64,000 nucleotides of DNA from Escherichia phage mogra, in the sequence record MN850579.1. One strand, given 5' to 3'. Positions 23,198-54,779 of the stretch are shown one piece after another. The position numbers and the translations under genes were made by a program. The notes beneath the pieces are model-generated. The model was not told where the DNA came from. It searched no databases and saw only the letters and a program-made list of their open reading frames with translations. How positions within the stretch are numbered: the stretch's first letter is position 1; the number at the start of each line of letters is the position of its first letter.

Positions 23198-23671
23198 ATG
23201 TTATTATCAGGCGCAAAATATAAAGAAGAAAAACAAAAATTTTATGATGCACAGAACGGTAAGTGTCCTATTTGCCACCGTGAATTAGACCCTGATGTTC
23301 AAGGTAACCATCTTGACCACGACCACGAATTAAACGGGCCAAAAGCTGGTAAGGTTCGTGGTTTACTATGTAACCTGTGCAATGCAGCAGAAGGCCAAAT
23401 GAAGCATAAGTTCAACCGTTCTGGTCTTAAAGGTCAAAACGTTGATTACCTCGAATGGCTTGAATCTCTTCTTGCTTATTTGAAACAAGATTATTCTGAT
23501 AATAATATCCATCCTAATTTTGTTGGAGATAAATCAAAGGAATTTTCTCGTTTAGGAAAAGAGGAAATGATGTCCGAGATGCTTCAAAGAGGATTTGAAT
23601 ATAATGAATCTGATACTAAAACACAATTAATAGCTTCATTCAAAAAGCAGCTTAGAAAGAGTTTAAAATGA
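23198..23671 (+). CDS. 49: endonuclease VII (Holliday junction resolvase)
   Basis: MLLSGAKYKEEKQKFYDAQNGKCPICHRELDPDVQGNHLDHDHELNGPKAGKVRGLLCNLCNAAEGQ... matches recalled T4 gp49; 157 aa. Confidence 0.93.
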   Translation: MLLSGAKYKEEKQKFYDAQNGKCPICHRELDPDVQGNHLDHDHELNGPKAGKVRGLLCNLCNAAEGQMKHKFNRSGLKGQNVDYLEWLESLLAYLKQDYSDNNIHPNFVGDKSKEFSRLGKEEMMSEMLQRGFEYNESDTKTQLIASFKKQLRKSLK

Positions 23672-25485
23672 AAATTGAAAAAGAAATTGAAGGATTAATT
23701 TATAAAACTAATAAAGATCTTTTGAACGAGAATGCTAATAAAGATTCTCGTGTTTTTCCAACTCAACGGGACCTTATGGCTGGTATTGTGTCTAAGCACA
23801 TTGCCAAAAATATGGTCCCGTCTTTTATTATGAATGCGCATGAAAGCGGAATCATTCACATGCATGATATTGATTATTCTCCTGCTCTTCCGTTTACCAA
23901 TTGCTGTTTAGTCGATTTAAAGGGGATGCTTGAGAATGGATTTAAATTAGGCAATGCTCAAATTGAAACGCCTAAATCTATTGGCGTTGCTACTGCAATT
24001 ATGGCACAAATTACCGCACAAGTTGCTTCACACCAGTATGGCGGAACTACATTTGCGAATGTCGATAAAGTTCTTTCTCCTTATGTTAAACGCACATACG
24101 CTAAACATATTGAAGATGCAGAAAAATGGCAAATCGCTGATGCGTTGAATTATGCTCAATCCAAAACAGAAAAAGATGTCTATGACGCGTTCCAAGCTTA
24201 TGAATATGAAGTAAATACTCTCTTTAGTTCAAACGGACAAACGCCTTTTGTAACAATTACATTTGGTACGGGAACTGACTGGACTGAACGAATGATTCAG
24301 AAGGCAATTCTTAAAAACCGCATTAAAGGTCTTGGTCGTGATGGAATAACTCCTATTTTTCCTAAACTTGTTATGTTTGTTGAAGAAGGTGTTAATCTTT
24401 ATAAAGATGATCCAAACTATGATATTAAACAACTTGCGTTAGAATGTGCAAGCAAAAGAATGTATCCTGACATTATTTCGGTTAAGAATAATAAAGCTAT
24501 TACCGGTTCTTCAGTTCCTGTTTCTCCGATGGGTTGCCGTAGTTTTTTGAGTGTGTGGAAAGATTCGACTGGTAATGAAATTCTTGATGGACGTAATAAT
24601 CTTGGTGTTGTAACACTGAATCTTCCTCGTATCGCATTAGATTCTTATATTGGAACACAGTTCAATGAACAGAAATTTGTTGAGCTATTTAACGAACGAA
24701 TGGACCTGTGTTTTGAAGCCTTGATGTGTAGAATTAGTTCTTTAAAGGGTGTTAAAGCGACTGTTGCTCCTATTCTTTACCAAGAAGGTGCATTCGGTGT
24801 TCGTCTTAAACCTGATGACGATATAATTGAGTTATTTAAAAACGGTAGAAGTTCAGTGTCTTTGGGATACATTGGTATTCACGAATTGAATATTCTTGTC
24901 GGTCGTGATATTGGGCAAGAAATTTTAACTAAAATGAATGCTCATCTTAAACAGTGGACTGAAAGAACCGGATTTGCTTTTAGTTTATATTCTACTCCTG
25001 CTGAAAACCTTTGTTATCGCTTCTGTAAACTTGATACAGAAAAATATGGAAGTGTAAAGGATGTTACAGATAAAGGCTGGTACACTAACAGTTTCCATGT
25101 TTCAGTAGAAGAAAATATTACTCCGTTTGAAAAAATTTCTCGTGAAGCTCCTTATCATTTCATAGCGACCGGCGGTCACATTTCTTATGTTGAACTTCCA
25201 GATATGAAAAACAATTTAAAGGGGCTTGAGGCCGTCTGGGATTATGCTGCACAACATTTAGATTATTTTGGTGTTAATATGCCAGTGGATAAATGTTTTA
25301 CATGTGGAAGTACCCATGAAATGACTCCTACTGAAAATGGATTTGTTTGTTCAGTTTGCGGAGAAACTGATCCTAAAAAGATGAACACAATAAGAAGAAC
25401 ATGTGGTTATTTGGGAAATCCGAACGAACGCGGATTTAATCTCGGTAAAAATAAAGAAATCATGCATAGGGTTAAACACCAATGA
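23668..25485 (+). CDS. nrdD: anaerobic ribonucleoside-triphosphate reductase
   Basis: 605 aa uninterrupted; C-terminal zinc ribbon CFTCGS...CSVCGE and glycyl-radical motif RRTCGYLG. Confidence 0.95.
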   Translation: MKIEKEIEGLIYKTNKDLLNENANKDSRVFPTQRDLMAGIVSKHIAKNMVPSFIMNAHESGIIHMHDIDYSPALPFTNCCLVDLKGMLENGFKLGNAQIETPKSIGVATAIMAQITAQVASHQYGGTTFANVDKVLSPYVKRTYAKHIEDAEKWQIADALNYAQSKTEKDVYDAFQAYEYEVNTLFSSNGQTPFVTITFGTGTDWTERMIQKAILKNRIKGLGRDGITPIFPKLVMFVEEGVNLYKDDPNYDIKQLALECASKRMYPDIISVKNNKAITGSSVPVSPMGCRSFLSVWKDSTGNEILDGRNNLGVVTLNLPRIALDSYIGTQFNEQKFVELFNERMDLCFEALMCRISSLKGVKATVAPILYQEGAFGVRLKPDDDIIELFKNGRSSVSLGYIGIHELNILVGRDIGQEILTKMNAHLKQWTERTGFAFSLYSTPAENLCYRFCKLDTEKYGSVKDVTDKGWYTNSFHVSVEENITPFEKISREAPYHFIATGGHISYVELPDMKNNLKGLEAVWDYAAQHLDYFGVNMPVDKCFTCGSTHEMTPTENGFVCSVCGETDPKKMNTIRRTCGYLGNPNERGFNLGKNKEIMHRVKHQ

Positions 25486-39835: not shown

Positions 39836-40471
39836 ATGAAAACTACACCAATCACTATCGCTATTGACGCAATTGTAAAACAAGCTTCATCTCTTGCCAC
39901 TATGGCTAAAGTAATTAGTCAAAACCATGCTCGTTATAATGCTATTCTAGAAACTCTTCGACGCCCTGGACTTAGTAATTATGAAAGCCGGGTAATTATT
40001 ACAGGTGTTGGTAAGAATGCTAATATCGCAACTAAAGCTTCCGAGACTTTTGCTTCACTAGGTATTCCTAGCATGTATTTGAATACCGGGCATTATTCTC
40101 ATGGTGACGCAGGATTTATTGCACCTAATGATGTATTAGTTCACATCAGTCGTTCTGGTAAGACTGAAGAAATGATAGGTGTTGCTAAACATCTTCGTAT
40201 GATTCGTCCTCAGGTTAAACAGATTCTGTTACATTGTAACCCTGACATTCCACAAGAATACGAAGCTCTTTTTGATTATACGTTCTGTACCGGTATCGCG
40301 GTAGAAGTTGACGAGAACTCTTTAGCTCCGACAATGTCTACTACATTGTTGTTAGCGCTTATCGATACGTTCGCTATCAACCTTTCGTCTGAACGTGGAT
40401 TTACCTCTAATGATTTCCTTAAGTTCCATCCAGGCGGTGCACTAGGTGCCATGTTACGAGGCGAACAATGA
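39836..40471 (+). CDS. SIS-domain sugar-phosphate isomerase, arabinose-5-phosphate isomerase (KpsF/GutQ)-like
   Basis: ITGVGKNANIATKASETFASLG, HISRSGKTEE, LAPTMSTT and HPGGALG match recalled KpsF/GutQ SIS signatures; no CBS domains. Confidence 0.78.
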   Translation: MKTTPITIAIDAIVKQASSLATMAKVISQNHARYNAILETLRRPGLSNYESRVIITGVGKNANIATKASETFASLGIPSMYLNTGHYSHGDAGFIAPNDVLVHISRSGKTEEMIGVAKHLRMIRPQVKQILLHCNPDIPQEYEALFDYTFCTGIAVEVDENSLAPTMSTTLLLALIDTFAINLSSERGFTSNDFLKFHPGGALGAMLRGEQ

Positions 40472-40652: not shown

Positions 40653-42338
40653 ATGAAAAAAGCTGTTATTCTTGGTGCTGGACTGGCAACTCGTTTGTAT
40701 CCAATAACGCATCATATTCCTAAGGTGCTTGTGAACTATAAACAAGACACTATTCTGAGCAATTTGTATACAATTTATTCTGACCTTGGCGCAGATGAAA
40801 TTATTGTAGTAGTTCATTCAAAATTTGCTGAAACTGTTCGAGCTTATTGTGAGCAAGAAGGGTTCAATGTGACTATTCGTACAGTTGATGAAGCGTATGG
40901 TTCTGCTTATGCTCTTGCTAAATTACACAAAGATTTAGACGGTCATAATGTAATTGTTAACTGGTGCGATATTATTCCTGATTTTGGTTCATGGTCTTGG
41001 AATGTTAACGCAATCTATGTTAAGGGTGATGAATGTCGATATAATTTCGACGGTGAAAATATCACTAACGTAGGTTCAACAGGTGGTAATGTTGTAGGAA
41101 TTTATCAGTTCAAAGACTGGGAATTCTATATGGGTTCTACTGATGAGGAAATTCATGAATACTGCAAAGGACGTGATTTCGTAGAATTCCTTTACAGCGC
41201 CGCATTCAATAAATCAGAGCTTATGAATCTAATTGATTTAGGTGATATGCCTAAACTTGAAAAGGCTCATGAAGTTCGTGAACTTAATCGTAGTTTTAAC
41301 GCAGTTGAAATTGGTGAAGAAACTGTAACTAAATTCGCATTAACCGAACAGGGTCGAGCTCTTCAGAAAGATGAGATTTCATGGTATTTGAAAGTGAAAT
41401 CAGATTCAGTTCCTCAGTTAGTTTCTGTTAATGAAAATAACTTTGAAATGGAACGCATTAAAGGTAAGCCAGCATTTGAATATATTAAATCCAAATCAAG
41501 TCTTGCTCGTCCACAAATTGTTGATGCAATTTTAGATGCACTGAAATTCAGCACAGACACTTATTTTGTAAGTCCTGAAACTGTTCGTCGTGATTTCACT
41601 AAAGAATTCTATACGAAAGTTATTGATCGTTGTGAAAGCATTCAACCATTGATTGATTCATTTGGTAAAATCACGCATGTGAACTACACTAAGATTGGAC
41701 GTCTGAAGCCAATGCTGAAACAAGCTTTAGAACACCTTATTCGTTATCATAACCGTTCTCAGGGACAGTACTCTGTTATTCATGGCGACCCGAACTTCAG
41801 TAATACTATGATTACTGATAATGGCGAAGTCAAGTTTATCGACCCTCGTGGATATTTTGGTGAAACCAAGATTTACGGGCCGAAATTGTACGACGAAGCT
41901 AAAGTGCTTTACGCTGTTTCAGGTTATGATGAATTCAACGCTAATCCGACCTGGGGGCAGTTTACTATTGATGAAACAACTTGTAATGTGACTATTAACA
42001 TCAATCCATTAGTTTACAAATATGGAAAGATGAGTTCGTTTAACGAGTATCATCATTTGGCAGTGGCAATTATCTGGATTGCATTAGGTGGTTATTTCAA
42101 GAATAATCCACTTAAAGCGGTAGCCGCATATTATAAAGGTATGGAACTTCTGACTAAGCAATTACGTAACATGGGCCGTGTACTTCAGGACGGCTCTATT
42201 AGTTATGACGTAGCAGAACCTGTAACGGCTACTCTGATTACAAAAAATCCTGGTAAGTGGGTACTAACTGATAAAGAAACTGGTGTTTCCTATCGTCCAA
42301 TAGGTGGCGATATCACTCATCAATGGGAACGAATCTAA
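40653..42338 (+). CDS. bifunctional sugar-1-phosphate nucleotidyltransferase / APH-fold sugar kinase
   Basis: N-terminal LGAGLATRLYP...PK (GxGxR NTP-transferase motif); C-terminal VIHGDPNFSNTMITDNGEVKFIDPRG (kinase catalytic and metal loops); 561 aa. Confidence 0.72.
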   Translation: MKKAVILGAGLATRLYPITHHIPKVLVNYKQDTILSNLYTIYSDLGADEIIVVVHSKFAETVRAYCEQEGFNVTIRTVDEAYGSAYALAKLHKDLDGHNVIVNWCDIIPDFGSWSWNVNAIYVKGDECRYNFDGENITNVGSTGGNVVGIYQFKDWEFYMGSTDEEIHEYCKGRDFVEFLYSAAFNKSELMNLIDLGDMPKLEKAHEVRELNRSFNAVEIGEETVTKFALTEQGRALQKDEISWYLKVKSDSVPQLVSVNENNFEMERIKGKPAFEYIKSKSSLARPQIVDAILDALKFSTDTYFVSPETVRRDFTKEFYTKVIDRCESIQPLIDSFGKITHVNYTKIGRLKPMLKQALEHLIRYHNRSQGQYSVIHGDPNFSNTMITDNGEVKFIDPRGYFGETKIYGPKLYDEAKVLYAVSGYDEFNANPTWGQFTIDETTCNVTININPLVYKYGKMSSFNEYHHLAVAIIWIALGGYFKNNPLKAVAAYYKGMELLTKQLRNMGRVLQDGSISYDVAEPVTATLITKNPGKWVLTDKETGVSYRPIGGDITHQWERI

Positions 42339-42724
42339 TGCACCGCGTAGAAAACATGCTTAATCTTTGTTTTGATGTCGATGATTGTATAACAGAGTGG
42401 AATAACAATCGTGATTACGTGAACTTCAAGCCAGACGTCGAAATGGTGTCTGCCATTAATGCCCTGTATGATGCAGGGCATACCATAACGCTTTACACTG
42501 CTCGCGGTATGAAGTCAGTCGGTCCTGGTCGTATAGCAATTGACATTCTCCCAAGTCTGATTCAGAACTTGGCAAACATTGGCTTGAAGTACCATAATTT
42601 GCTAACACATAAACCAGTATATGATTGGATTATCGACGACAAAGCTATGCGTCCTGACGAATTCAAAGCTCTTATGAATAAAGGCGAATTCGAAACATTT
42701 AAATCATATAAACCGAATCTATAA
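42338..42724 (+). CDS. HAD-superfamily phosphatase
   Basis: Motif I CFDVDDCIT, Thr/Arg motif LYTARG, C-terminal DD (WIIDDKA); ATG 42338 overlaps upstream stop (TAATG). Confidence 0.6.
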   Translation: MHRVENMLNLCFDVDDCITEWNNNRDYVNFKPDVEMVSAINALYDAGHTITLYTARGMKSVGPGRIAIDILPSLIQNLANIGLKYHNLLTHKPVYDWIIDDKAMRPDEFKALMNKGEFETFKSYKPNL

Positions 42725-42784: not shown

Positions 42785-43945
42785 ATGAATACTTTTAAAA
42801 TCGGAACGAATTTTGATTTAGCTCTTCTTGATAAAATCGTAGAGCTCAATAAAACTTATCCTAATAGCTTGATAAATGAAGTATACGGCTCTACAAGAGA
42901 AATGGCTTTTGTAGCAGCCAGACCTGATTTTAGGCTTCCTGACATTGACAAAAAGATGTTAGAAGATTATGTTAAACGTTGTAACGAATTAGGTATTTGC
43001 TTTAACTATACACTCAACACGATAAATCCTGGTTCAAAAAGAGAACTAGTTGAGTGGAAGAAGAAAGCTATTCAGGATTATGTTCAGTATCTTTGGTCAA
43101 TAGGCGTATGGCGTATTACTATCGCTAACCCTGTTGTTATGGAAATTGTTCGTGAAGTCAATAAAGACATTGAGATTGAAGTTTCAACAATTCTACATGT
43201 CGATGCTGTAACTCAAATCAAATACTTGCATGACCAGTATAATATCAAAAAGGTCTGCTGTGGAATTCATAAGAACCGTTCAGTTTCTTTCCTGAAGCGT
43301 GCAGCAGAGTTTTGCAATAAGAACAATATAATATTTGAAGTTCTTGTAAATGAGTTCTGTTCTAATGCTGGTAAAGGGTATACAACACATTGTAGCTATC
43401 GTGACTCTTGCTATATTTTCCATAGTACTGATGTTACAGCTGATGATGCTAAATCCTTAAACGGATATCCAATGCAGCACTGTATTAAAGCTCGTGATAC
43501 AGACCCATTTAACTGGTTGAGAACTCGTTTTGTTCGTCCTCAAGATTTGAAACTTTATAATGATATCGGTATCACTCAATTCAAAGTTTCAGGACGTACA
43601 GGTAGCACAGACTACATTTTGAAAGTTCTTGAAGCATACGCTTCTGAAAAGTTTGAAGGTAATTTGTTAGAACTGTGGAAGCCTTTAGAGACTATTTTCA
43701 CTCTTGAAAACGAAACTGAGTTTTCACATACAGTAAATATTGAAACCTCTTTGTTAGATGGCTTTTTAGAAAAAAGGTGGTTCAGACATCCAGATTTCGA
43801 TTGTGCTAATGAAATCTGCGGGACGACGTGTACATATTGTGAAAGATATTATAAACGTCAATTATCTAAAAACGGGTTAGCAGAAAACTCTATATCTATT
43901 ATTGATATAACTAACTCTGATGACGCTTTGAGGTACCCGGAATGA
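42785..43945 (+). CDS. peptidase-U32-family protein (family includes O2-independent hydroxylases)
   Basis: Block pattern FNYTLNT...ITIANPVV...EIEVST...VLVNEFC...G...HCSYRDSC parallels recalled U32 TIM-barrel signature; second cluster CANEICGTTCTYC. Confidence 0.5.
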   Translation: MNTFKIGTNFDLALLDKIVELNKTYPNSLINEVYGSTREMAFVAARPDFRLPDIDKKMLEDYVKRCNELGICFNYTLNTINPGSKRELVEWKKKAIQDYVQYLWSIGVWRITIANPVVMEIVREVNKDIEIEVSTILHVDAVTQIKYLHDQYNIKKVCCGIHKNRSVSFLKRAAEFCNKNNIIFEVLVNEFCSNAGKGYTTHCSYRDSCYIFHSTDVTADDAKSLNGYPMQHCIKARDTDPFNWLRTRFVRPQDLKLYNDIGITQFKVSGRTGSTDYILKVLEAYASEKFEGNLLELWKPLETIFTLENETEFSHTVNIETSLLDGFLEKRWFRHPDFDCANEICGTTCTYCERYYKRQLSKNGLAENSISIIDITNSDDALRYPE

Positions 43946-44181
43946 TTTCTAGAAAAACTTTTAACCACCGACTTAATGAAGAGATTTTGACTATGAAACT
44001 GAACACTAATGAACAAATTCTTAAAAAGGCCCTGATGGGCCTGTTTGAAACTAAAGCGGCTAAAGTGATTAAAGAACCTGTTCAATTGGAATACTACGCT
44101 GATGCATTTCTTCATAGTGTTCTTGGAAGTATCGATGCTGAATCTTTACGTTATATCAACATTGTCAAGAAATTCAAATAA
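43942..44181 (+). CDS. hypothetical small protein
   Basis: ATGA overlap with U32-like gene; 79 aa; no motif. Confidence 0.45.
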   Translation: MISRKTFNHRLNEEILTMKLNTNEQILKKALMGLFETKAAKVIKEPVQLEYYADAFLHSVLGSIDAESLRYINIVKKFK

Positions 44182-44223
44182 GCTTTACGAATTGAGTATA
44201 TAATAAATTGTATTGAGGTAAAC

Positions 44224-44940
44224 ATGGGAAAACATAACACAATGAAATATATCAAAGCCGCAGATTTTCAAACCGCATTTAAAGCAGTCAATCGTGAAAT
44301 TTTAGAAAACCCGGAATTCGTAACTGATTCTCGTATTGGACGTTGTAATGAAATTGGGTCTATGACAGTAGTTGTTGACACTCCATCATCATTCAAAATG
44401 ACCGACCCACGTATTAACCGCATCTCTTATGAATATGCCGAAGACTTCTGGAAGTTTATGATTTCCGGTGGTACCAACGCAGAAGAAGCGTTTAAGGCAT
44501 ATCCTAATGTCGCTAAATTTATTTCTAAACCAAAATCAGATGTTTTGCCGGCGAACTTCAACACTTTCTATGGTCCTCGCATTGCGGCCCAATTACCAGC
44601 TCTTCTAAAAGAACTTAAAGAGAAGCCTAACTCTCGAAGAGTTGTGTTCCAAATTCTAGAAAGTTCTGATCAGGCTTTGCTTGATTCGGACGAAACGCTT
44701 GAATATCCATGTACTGACTCAGTGACTTATTATATTCGTGATGGTAAGCTTTATACCCACTGTCATATGCGTTCTCAGAACTGTGCTGTTGTTATGCAGT
44801 TGGATTTTTATCTCCAAGGAAAATTACTTCATTATATCGCTAACGAATGTGGTGTAGAAGTTGGTGATTATACTCATACCATGGTAAGTGCCCATGTGTT
44901 TGAACGTGATTTTGATTATGTTAAAGGATTCCTTGACTAA
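44224..44940 (+). CDS. thymidylate-synthase-fold pyrimidine C5 enzyme, dCMP hydroxymethylase-like, divergent
   Basis: PNSRR phosphate loop; catalytic Pro-Cys (YPCTD); MRSQN...QLDFY with Asp at the ThyA Asn177-equivalent position; EVGDY...H. Confidence 0.78.
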   Translation: MGKHNTMKYIKAADFQTAFKAVNREILENPEFVTDSRIGRCNEIGSMTVVVDTPSSFKMTDPRINRISYEYAEDFWKFMISGGTNAEEAFKAYPNVAKFISKPKSDVLPANFNTFYGPRIAAQLPALLKELKEKPNSRRVVFQILESSDQALLDSDETLEYPCTDSVTYYIRDGKLYTHCHMRSQNCAVVMQLDFYLQGKLLHYIANECGVEVGDYTHTMVSAHVFERDFDYVKGFLD

Positions 44941-45839
44941 TGGCTATTTTCCGCGTACCAATCTTGAGTATGCGGTCTTATGAAACTGGACAGTATGCTA
45001 TCCTTAAGGATGGCAACTTCCAACTTCATTTGCACCGTGCTAATCCAGGCGATGTGATTACATATCCACGTAATGCATCTGATATTAAAGAATGTGAACG
45101 TCTTTTCCCAGAATTTAAGTTTGTTCCATTATGGTATAAAGATAACGCGTATAACACTCGTAAATATTTCTGGTCCGAAAATGAATTTGTGGTTGATTCA
45201 TTAATTGCTTATTATGATTGTGATTTTCTAATCACAGATATCACTGGATATAACGGCGCTTTTGATGTAGAATTCAATTTCAATATCACGGCAGACCCTA
45301 ATAAACCACGTTTTTATATTGGCGAATTCTTAAAAACCGATATGTTGTCAGTTAATAGTTCACTTCAAACTACTGTGTTGAATGAACGTCAAAAAGAAGT
45401 GCTGGTTAACGCAGGTGCAGATGGTAATAAGATTATCGTAACTCAGAAAGTTATACGTCCTTCCATCATGCAGCGTCTTGTAGGTGATTTGGCTCCTATT
45501 CATCTAGATGGTATTTTTCATCCATTTCGAATTAGTGACCCGTGCTATCGTTTTGAACAAGTGGTTGAATGTGCAATTCAATTAGGCCAACCGCTTTATA
45601 TAACCGATCCAAATAATAGCTTCGACAGAAATAAGTATCCTGAAGAAGCGCTGATTCGAATTTTTAAACCAACTAAAACTGAGTACTATCAAATTCTTAA
45701 AGGACGTCCGAAGATTCAATATTTCGAAAATCCTGAAGAAGTATTTCATCCAGGTCTTGGTGAGTTCATCTACTTTAATGCTTTAATTTCTTCGCCGTAT
45801 AATATACCTAAATACGAAGATGTCGTAATCGAGGAATAA
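44940..45839 (+). CDS. hypothetical protein (299 aa), candidate DNA sugar transferase
   Basis: TAATG-coupled to the TS-fold gene; no recognisable motif; function inferred from context only. Confidence 0.5.
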   Translation: MAIFRVPILSMRSYETGQYAILKDGNFQLHLHRANPGDVITYPRNASDIKECERLFPEFKFVPLWYKDNAYNTRKYFWSENEFVVDSLIAYYDCDFLITDITGYNGAFDVEFNFNITADPNKPRFYIGEFLKTDMLSVNSSLQTTVLNERQKEVLVNAGADGNKIIVTQKVIRPSIMQRLVGDLAPIHLDGIFHPFRISDPCYRFEQVVECAIQLGQPLYITDPNNSFDRNKYPEEALIRIFKPTKTEYYQILKGRPKIQYFENPEEVFHPGLGEFIYFNALISSPYNIPKYEDVVIEE

Positions 45840-45840
45840 A

Positions 45841-46389
45841 ATGGCTAAAATTATTTTAGTAGATGGCCCGGATAATGCCGGTAAAACAACTTTCATTAAT
45901 GACATAATGGAAATTAGTGAAAGATATGTAAAGATTGATTTCCCTAAACGAACAGTTGATGGACGTTTCGATGTTAAGTCTCGAAATGAAGTTGGTTGTT
46001 TCGAAACGATGTTGAATTATTTAGACCCTACTAAGATTTATCTGTTAGACCGTGGATATATTAGTAACTGGGTTTATGGACGTATTCGACAAGATGCGGA
46101 CTCTGTTCTTGATGTTTATGAGCAGGATTATGTTCGTCTTTGCCAAAACCATGATGTGTTCACAATTATTTTAACACGTAACGAAATGACTGAAAGTTTT
46201 GAAGACGACCTTATTACTTTGTCTTCATTCGGTTTTAATACAGTCATTTCACATTTTGAAGAGTTTGCAATTCATAACAAAATCCAAACGTATCAATTAC
46301 TTAATCATGATGGTGCTAACAAAGTTATAGGATTTAATGCAAGCGAACGTAATGGTTTGATTACAGAAATCATCAAATGGGCTCGTTAA
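45841..46389 (+). CDS. P-loop nucleotide kinase (thymidylate-kinase-like)
   Basis: P-loop VDGPDNAGKTT; DRGY motif (LLDRGYISNWVYGR) reminiscent of Tmk DRY/DRH; 182 aa. Confidence 0.62.
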   Translation: MAKIILVDGPDNAGKTTFINDIMEISERYVKIDFPKRTVDGRFDVKSRNEVGCFETMLNYLDPTKIYLLDRGYISNWVYGRIRQDADSVLDVYEQDYVRLCQNHDVFTIILTRNEMTESFEDDLITLSSFGFNTVISHFEEFAIHNKIQTYQLLNHDGANKVIGFNASERNGLITEIIKWAR

Positions 46390-54168: not shown

Positions 54169-54257
54169 AATATCTCCTTAGTTACCTATTATTTATTACG
54201 CTTTATAAAATTAATGGTAGAATTAAACTCTCTTATACTGAATTGAAAGGAAAAATA

Positions 54258-54779
54258 ATGGCGCACTTTAATGAATGTTCACAACTTATTTCTGGTGTTG
54301 ATAAAGCAGAAGAAGCTTATTTTAATGCTCTGATTCACGAAGATAAAGACCCACTTCAGGTAATGCTTGATATGCAGAAATCTTTACAGGTTCGTCTGGC
54401 AAATGACAAGCCTGAACATAACAAACATCCTGATGAATTGGCTACTGCTGGTGATGTTGTTGATTGGCTGCGTAATCAGAAAGATTATATTGATGATGAA
54501 TTCCGTGAACTGTTGACTTCACTTGGTGGTATGAGCAATGGTGAAAAAGCCGCCAGCAGTGTATGGAAGCCTTGGAAAGCACAACATGCTGAATATCGAA
54601 ATCGTCGTATCGATGAACTGTCTCCTGAAGACCAGCTTGAAATTAAATTTGAGATGATTGATATTCTTCATTTCGTTCTGAATATGTTCCAGGGTCTTGG
54701 TCTTACAGCAGAAGAAATCTTTAAACTTTACTACTTGAAAAACCAACACAACTTTGAACGCCAGGATAATGGTTACTGA
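54258..54779 (+). CDS. 56: dCTP pyrophosphatase gp56 (MazG-like)
   Basis: ATG 54258 after AGGA; all-alpha MazG-like NTP-PPase; position between 61 and soc; 173 aa. Confidence 0.8.
   Translation: MAHFNECSQLISGVDKAEEAYFNALIHEDKDPLQVMLDMQKSLQVRLANDKPEHNKHPDELATAGDVVDWLRNQKDYIDDEFRELLTSLGGMSNGEKAASSVWKPWKAQHAEYRNRRIDELSPEDQLEIKFEMIDILHFVLNMFQGLGLTAEEIFKLYYLKNQHNFERQDNGY

Follow-up and report, generated by a model that had tools for sequence, protein, structure and literature searches.

The ORF at 44224-44940 of the window, by which we mean the whole 64,000-nucleotide stretch of Escherichia phage mogra DNA analyzed here (MN850579.1), almost certainly encodes a flavin- and O2-dependent dCMP 5-hydroxylase (5-hydroxy-dCMP synthase). 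This assignment was made from the sequence and the DNA modification known for near-identical characterized proteins and from the gene cluster, and nothing in the sequence counts against it. That the enzyme binds a flavin and forms 5-hydroxy-dCMP with O2 has been demonstrated for RB69 gp48 and HY126 AfhB only, and both properties are predicted for the mogra protein from its sequence. The finding is already known, since all of it has been published and the protein is ~99% identical to the characterized ones; it carries little weight beyond correct annotation. Public records still name the protein 'thymidylate synthase' or 'dCMP hydroxymethylase', and dCMP 5-hydroxylase is the better label. That a thymidylate-synthase fold hydroxylates dCMP with flavin and O2 was a surprise when published in 2025-2026, and the preliminary description of this DNA, made from the sequence, had rightly flagged an enzyme with surprising chemistry on the basis of an Asp at the position of ThyA residue 177 and poor similarity to T4 gp42.

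Near-identity to RB69 gp48 and HY126 AfhB

In the ORF listing, the gene begins with ATG, ends with TAA, and encodes 238 aa. Comparison with RB69 gp48 (NP_861738.1) revealed 99.2% identity over the full length (236/238), and the Cys/Glu/Asn/Asp signature, the neighboring genes, and their order were the same. The two substitutions, N85D and V107A, lie outside the active-site positions of PMC13326640. The best PDB sequence matches were 9IQC/9IR2 and 9IQU (E = 8e-161, five substitutions, ~98% identity), followed by thymidylate synthases (C-terminal half only, ~1e-12) and by MilA, the only other full-length match among the best 60 phmmer matches (E = 4e-11). Entries 9IQC ("Monooxygenase dependent on riboflavin with dCMP and FAD") and 9IQU ("phage HY126 dCMP hydroxylase-AfhB with substrate dCMP") were both released on 2025-07-16. 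HY126 AfhB differs from the mogra protein at residues 17, 31, 85, 87, and 107 only, and none of the substitutions relative to RB69 gp48 (2) or AfhB (5) falls at a listed active-site position.

The DNA of RB69 and of Acinetobacter phage DLP3 contains arabinosylated 5-hydroxycytosine, not hydroxymethylcytosine (Lee et al., NAR 2026, PMC13326640). In that study, RB69 gp48 or DLP3 gp80 together with a phage dNMP kinase gave 5-hydroxy-dC (243 Da) in E. coli DNA, the product formed under 18O2 had a mass of 245 Da, and T4 gp42 in parallel gave 5hmdC (PMC13326640). Purified 5hodCMP synthases were yellow, absorbed at 370/455 nm, and released FMN; replacement of Asp169 by Asn was the diagnostic residue, with 9/9 diverse D169N homologs making 5hodC; the dNMP kinase phosphorylated 5hodCMP, and arabinosylation took place on DNA (PMC13326640). 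Together with the PDB titles, this work shows for near-identical proteins the conversion of dCMP to 5-hydroxy-dCMP with oxygen from O2 and a bound flavin (FMN/FAD/riboflavin). As cited in PMC13326640, a crystal structure of the HY126 enzyme with flavin and its in vitro reconstitution with O2 were described by He et al. (Nat Chem Biol 2026), and related Serratia and E. coli phages by Mahler et al. (Cell Host Microbe 2025); the structural mechanism of AfhB is taken here from the PDB entry titles and from the account of He et al. 2026 in PMC13326640. The arabosyl-hydroxymethyl-cytosine earlier ascribed to RB69 DNA (PMC6024577, 2018) is superseded by the 2026 NMR/MS work.

Fold and conserved residues

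The Pfam family PF00303 (Thymidylat_synt) matched residues 122-235 only, with E = 2.3e-15 and 56.9 bits against a cut-off of 24.3, a similarity to thymidylate synthase far above chance. The family alignment also served to build an AlphaFold2 model (pLDDT 87); when this model was compared with the PDB using Foldseek, the TM values were 0.94 to 9IQC (rmsd 1.6 A) and 0.75-0.82 to MilA/ThyA. The Pfam match, the model, and the Foldseek comparison together place the mogra protein in the thymidylate-synthase fold. MilA (PDB 5JNH, 5B6D), a CMP 5-hydroxymethylase that uses folate and acts on a ribonucleotide, ranked highest among the best 50 structural matches once the entries of the hydroxylase family itself are set aside (Foldseek E = 1.5e-18, TMq 0.82); it has 24% identity to the mogra protein and a chain ~80 residues longer. 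No gp42 structure was found among the best 50 Foldseek or the best 60 phmmer PDB matches.

Residues were assigned from a MAFFT alignment of 13 sequences, in which the mogra protein, RB69 gp48, and nine further members of their family were set against T4 gp42 and E. coli ThyA. The ThyA sequence had been checked beforehand as identical to PDB 1AOB. The motifs PNSRR, YPCTD, QLDFY, and EVGD...H named in the preliminary description were all present in the ORF (Table 1), and its by-eye placement of an Asp at the ThyA Asn177 position was right, since the computed alignment puts Asp194 there. Invariant in 13/13 aligned sequences were Tyr116 (ThyA Tyr94), Arg138/Arg139 (Arg126/127), Cys163 (Cys146), Arg183/Ser184 (Arg166/Ser167), and His224 (His207). 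ThyA, with 29.6% identity over the C-terminal 115 residues, thus has the catalytic Cys, the phosphate-binding arginines, Tyr94, and His207 in common with the mogra protein but differs from it by N177D, by L143E (Leu143 to Glu160), by D169N (Asp169 to Asn186), and by G173V (Gly173 to Val190). In addition, the ThyA segment with the Trp80/Trp83 folate wall has no counterpart in the mogra protein, which ends ~45 residues short of the ThyA C-terminus. Across 42 members of the family, the most distant at 52% identity, Glu160, Cys163, Asn186, Val190, and Asp194 did not vary. The protein therefore combines the features of a 5hodCMP synthase, namely the thymidylate-synthase fold, Asn at Asp169, Cys at Cys146, Asp at Asn177, an acidic residue at Leu143, close identity to a characterized member, and a gene context of UDP-arabinose and DNA glycosyltransferase functions.

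Weighing of alternative activities

The preliminary description had predicted a dCMP-specific C5 transferase. Its dCMP-directed part is borne out by the Asp at Asn177, but the one-carbon transfer from CH2-THF is not, given that RB69 gp48 makes 5-hydroxy-dCMP with flavin and with oxygen from 18O2. It is very improbable that the protein is a diverged canonical folate-dependent dCMP hydroxymethylase with the function of gp42, whose product, 5-hm-dCMP, would then be arabinosylated. Many GenBank records do call identical or near-identical proteins 'dCMP hydroxymethylase', and hmC was assumed in the 2018 RB69 paper (PMC6024577). T4 gp42 (PDB 1B5E family) has the same fold, acts on dCMP, occupies the same slot between gene 43 and uvsX, and shares the Asp at 177 (Asp194 in mogra) and the acidic residue at 143 (Glu160); these two residues do not discriminate, because they are common to the hydroxylases and gp42. 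However, the identity between the mogra protein and gp42 was 24.8% over 218 residues, no closer than that between gp42 and ThyA (24.5%), in line with the earlier impression that gp42 is matched only at conserved motifs. The folate-site residues Asp169, Gly173, and Trp80 kept by gp42 are replaced in mogra by Asn186, Val190, and no aligned Trp. Whereas gp42 uses CH2-THF, adds CH2OH rather than OH without a need for O2, and is followed by glucosyl- and not arabinosyltransferases, the 99%-identical RB69 gp48 formed 5hodC (243 Da) and incorporated 18O from O2 where T4 gp42 gave 5hmdC (PMC13326640), and FAD is present in the crystal structure (9IQC). The absence of hm-dCMP formation from CH2-THF has in effect already been shown for RB69 gp48 in vivo. 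The non-orthologous replacement of gp42 that had been proposed is consistent with this low identity at the gp42 locus, and the different chemistry suspected at the same time was found in the flavin/O2 hydroxylation by RB69 gp48 and AfhB and in Asn186 at the Asp169 position that gp42 keeps.

Still less probable is a dCMP methylase forming 5-methyl-dCMP, or a conventional thymidylate synthase with dUMP as its substrate, as the Pfam Thymidylat_synt match and the 'thymidylate synthase' annotations might suggest. All NCBIfam thymidylate-synthase equivalogs scored far below their cut-offs (best 68 bits against 174.55), and Asp194 and Asn186 stand in place of the Asn177 and Asp169 of ThyA (EC 2.1.1.45). 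With Leu143 replaced by Glu, the protein lacks the hydrophobic side chain that goes with methyl products; it also lacks the C-terminal segment that closes over folate, and the 99%-identical RB69 gp48 makes 5hodC (PMC13326640).

Gene cluster and organization

The window is an RB69-type (Mosigvirus) early region and not a near-copy of T4, so the premise of the preliminary description that most of its proteins are near-identical to those of T4 was mistaken. Identities to T4 were only 61.7-78.7%, against 99.4-100% to RB69: gp43 (61.7% to T4, 99.9% to RB69), uvsX (67.9% and 99.7%), gp44 (77.8% and 99.4%), gp62 (73.8% and 100%), and regA (78.7% and 100%). A 4.1-kb region showed 98-99% identity with about 150 coliphage genomes. 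Between gene 43 and uvsX, T4 carries imm.1, imm, gene 42, beta-gt, and segA, whereas the window carries nine different ORFs, all 92-100% identical to RB69 gp45-gp55. The hydroxylase gene thus lies in the known 5-hydroxycytosine arabinosylation cluster between the DNA polymerase gene and uvsX (Table 1). The functions given for its neighbors are predicted from their identity to RB69 proteins and from family matches; by analogy, the pyrophosphohydrolase encoded farther downstream would supply dCMP and remove dCTP. Neither a second gene with the thymidylate-synthase fold nor a T4-type gp42 was found in the window, and tblastn of T4 a-gt and b-gt (alpha- and beta-glucosyltransferase) against it gave nothing better than E = 1.6.

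Table 1. Hydroxylase gene, its motifs, and predicted neighboring genes in the window.
Feature	Position	Strand	Remarks
Predicted arabinose-5-phosphate isomerase	39836..40471	+	RB69 gp55, 96.2% identity; PMC13326640
Predicted bifunctional sugar-1-phosphate nucleotidyltransferase/kinase (AfhE-like)	40653..42338	+	RB69 gp52:53; one intact 561-aa ORF; PMC13326640
Predicted HAD-type sugar phosphatase (AfhF-like)	42323..42724, start probably 42338	+	RB69 gp51, 99.2%; PMC13326640
U32-family protein	42785..43945	+	RB69 gp50, 99.2% identity
79-aa ORF	43942..44181	+	RB69 gp49
Predicted dCMP 5-hydroxylase / 5-hydroxy-dCMP synthase, thymidylate-synthase fold	44224..44940	+	Ortholog of RB69 gp48, HY126 AfhB
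PNSRR	P135-R139; R138/R139 codons 44635-44640	+	Putative phosphate-binding motif
YPCTD	Y161-D165; Cys163 codon 44710-44712	+	ThyA Cys146 nucleophile position
Asn186 codon	44779..44781	+	ThyA Asp169 position; published D169N signature of 5hodCMP synthases
QLDFY	Q192-Y196; Asp194 codon 44803-44805	+	ThyA Asn177 position; would select cytosine
EVGD...H	His224 codon 44893-44895	+	ThyA His207
Predicted DNA arabinosyltransferase 1	44940..45839	+	RB69 gp46:47; intact 299 aa; PMC13326640 Table 1
Predicted thymidylate-kinase-like nucleotide kinase (182 aa)	45841..46389	+	RB69 gp45, 98.9%; PMC13326640 Table 1
Predicted dCTPase-type NTP pyrophosphohydrolase (T4 gp56-type)	54243..54779, start codon uncertain	+	Family match; T4 paradigm, PMC13326640 Table 1

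The glycosyltransferase (299 aa) and nucleotidyltransferase/kinase (561 aa) genes are intact in the window and split in the RB69 record into gp46 + gp47 and gp52 + gp53, respectively. The intact ORFs agree with the published view that sequencing errors account for the splits in RB69.

A GAGG Shine-Dalgarno sequence was observed at 44215-44218, five bases 5' of the hydroxylase ATG. The hydroxylase stop codon overlaps the ATG of the 299-aa ORF at 44940, the stop of the U32 gene overlaps the start of the 79-aa ORF, and the 299-aa and 182-aa ORFs follow the hydroxylase without gaps, so that the genes are packed like a single transcription unit. Upstream of the hydroxylase ORF, AGCTTTA (44181-44187) is followed after 11 nt by TATAAT (44199-44204); judged by eye only, this pair looks like a middle promoter of the MotA-dependent T4 type whose MotA box deviates at one position. 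A scan for sigma-70 promoters and terminators around the gene, which does not cover MotA-type middle promoters, yielded sites no more numerous than in shuffled sequence. The GC content of the gene (38.5%) does not differ from that of the window (37.2%), and a recent foreign origin is therefore not suggested.

Proposed reaction and pathway

The dCMP 5-hydroxylase reading allows a reaction scheme to be outlined, in which the proposed roles of individual residues follow the known chemistry of thymidylate synthase and of flavin monooxygenases. Cys163 would add to C6 of dCMP, and Asp194 would read the N3/N4 edge of the cytosine. The activated C5, a carbanion equivalent, would then attack a flavin C4a-hydroperoxide held in the former folate site. 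This site has Asn186 instead of the folate-binding Asp and Val190 instead of Gly173, and it lacks the C-terminal tail that closes over folate. Cys163 would then be eliminated, freeing 5hodCMP. The phage dNMP kinase would phosphorylate this product for entry into DNA. After replication, the neighboring arabinosyltransferase(s) would add arabinofuranose to the 5-OH from UDP-arabinose, which the isomerase, kinase/pyrophosphorylase, and phosphatase encoded just upstream would provide, and the resulting arabinosyl-5-hydroxycytosine DNA would be expected to resist restriction.

Distribution of the hydroxylase clade

Using tblastn with thresholds of E <= 1e-60 and at least 60% identity, the hydroxylase clade was detected in 342 phage records, among them 176 for Escherichia, 57 for Acinetobacter, 26 for Klebsiella, and 15 for Shigella. 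Acinetobacter homologs were ~68-69% identical to the mogra protein; below the clade there was a gap down to the Rhizobium-phage homologs at ~30% identity, followed by gp42-type proteins at ~25%. In a large protein collection, 379 clusters matched at E <= 0.001, and the exact mogra sequence was found in a 157-member cluster. Acinetobacter phage DLP3 gp80 and Rhizobium phage RL38J1 gp216 belong to the same 5hodCMP synthase family and carry the D169N signature, but their pathways lead to tri-arabinose (DLP3) and galactose/glucose (RL38J1), a glycosylation unlike that predicted for mogra.

The neighboring U32 protein and chorismate mutase

Two positions upstream of the hydroxylase lies a gene whose product matched the Pfam U32 family (E = 7e-11). 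A sequence search of the PDB with this protein gave no matches. Its RB69 counterpart, gp50, appears in PMC13326640 only as a "sugar or heterocycle reductase" from fold matches and is not discussed there. The accessible literature contained no test of gp50 function and no account of a joint role for U32 and the hydroxylase; these points may be treated in the 2026 paper of He et al. or the 2025 paper of Mahler et al. Known U32 proteins include O2-independent, prephenate-dependent hydroxylases: RlhA, which forms 5-hydroxycytidine 2501 of 23S rRNA (PMC5727448), TrhP, which forms 5-hydroxyuridine 34 of tRNA (PMC6599085), and UbiU/UbiV (PMC10990095). A profile of six phage U32 sequences aligned with one of four E. 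coli paralogs over 209 columns (hhalign probability 95.5%, E = 1.5e-8). In the phage proteins, 13/13 cysteines were invariant across six phage genera, and Cys192, Cys203, and Cys209 fell within the conserved-Cys segment of the E. coli proteins in an ambiguous register. Besides this central Cys group, the phage proteins carry an invariant C-terminal CX4CX3CX2C (residues 340-352), which may hold either a zinc ion or another Fe-S cluster.

The U32 gene was detected in 221 phage records, in none of them below 80% identity. In 56 phage records it adjoins a chorismate mutase type II gene, located directly 3' of U32 or within two small ORFs of it in most non-RB69 genera, and the hosts of these phages belong to Serratia, Erwinia, Klebsiella, Yersinia, Proteus, Providencia, Edwardsiella, Enterobacter, Pectobacterium, and Shewanella. 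The chorismate mutase of Erwinia phage Virsaitis27 matched Pfam CM_2 above the cut-off (E = 1.7e-11). Shewanella phage Thanatos-2 has U32 and chorismate mutase and showed no thymidylate-synthase gene in the stretch examined beside U32. Chorismate mutase makes prephenate, and its presence beside U32 therefore suggests an O2-independent route of hydroxylation. We regard it as possible, although rather unlikely, that the phage U32 protein makes 5-hydroxy-cytosine nucleotides or hydroxylates DNA without O2, as in the gut, with the hydroxylase as the aerobic half of a two-route system. Such a pair would mirror the aerobic and anaerobic ribonucleotide reductases of T4-like phages. If true, the U32 route would explain how phages whose DNA is fully 5-hydroxy-C-substituted replicate without O2, and prephenate-dependent hydroxylation would extend from RNA and quinones to DNA precursors.

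In mogra and all RB69-like phages, the slot after U32 holds an ORF that is not detectably a chorismate mutase. The 79-aa ORF of mogra was considered as a diverged form of the enzyme and rejected, with no Pfam match, a BLASTP E of 0.24, and an hhalign probability of 0.1% against five phage chorismate mutases. Its only relatives are RB69-like (Mosigvirus) ORFs of 78-96% identity, several of them truncated to 47-58 aa, which suggests that this gene is fast-evolving or decaying.

The cluster also occurs without U32. Unlike mogra, the Acinetobacter phage clusters lack the gene, and Acinetobacter phages were absent from the U32 matches among the ten genera listed (of 17). A strict rule tying U32 to host aerobiosis was considered; it is not absolute, since the E. 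coli Dhakavirus JS10 has the hydroxylase cluster and lacks U32 just as the Acinetobacter phages do. Distant U32 homologs (50-58% identity) were found in large phage-like metagenome contigs (80-466 kb) with a gene for DNA polymerase III alpha. There, U32 is accompanied by genes for dCMP deaminase, thymidylate kinase, a UDG-family protein, NT5C, dNK, and a DAHP/KDO8P-synthase-family protein, and no thymidylate-synthase homolog was called within 8 kb of it. This neighborhood fits a nucleotide or DNA substrate without proving one.

In the close relative JK45, the gene for the large subunit of the anaerobic ribonucleotide reductase is interrupted by an I-TevII-type homing endonuclease. The corresponding place in the mogra window (23668-25485, +) holds an uninterrupted 605-aa ORF, a candidate nrdD.
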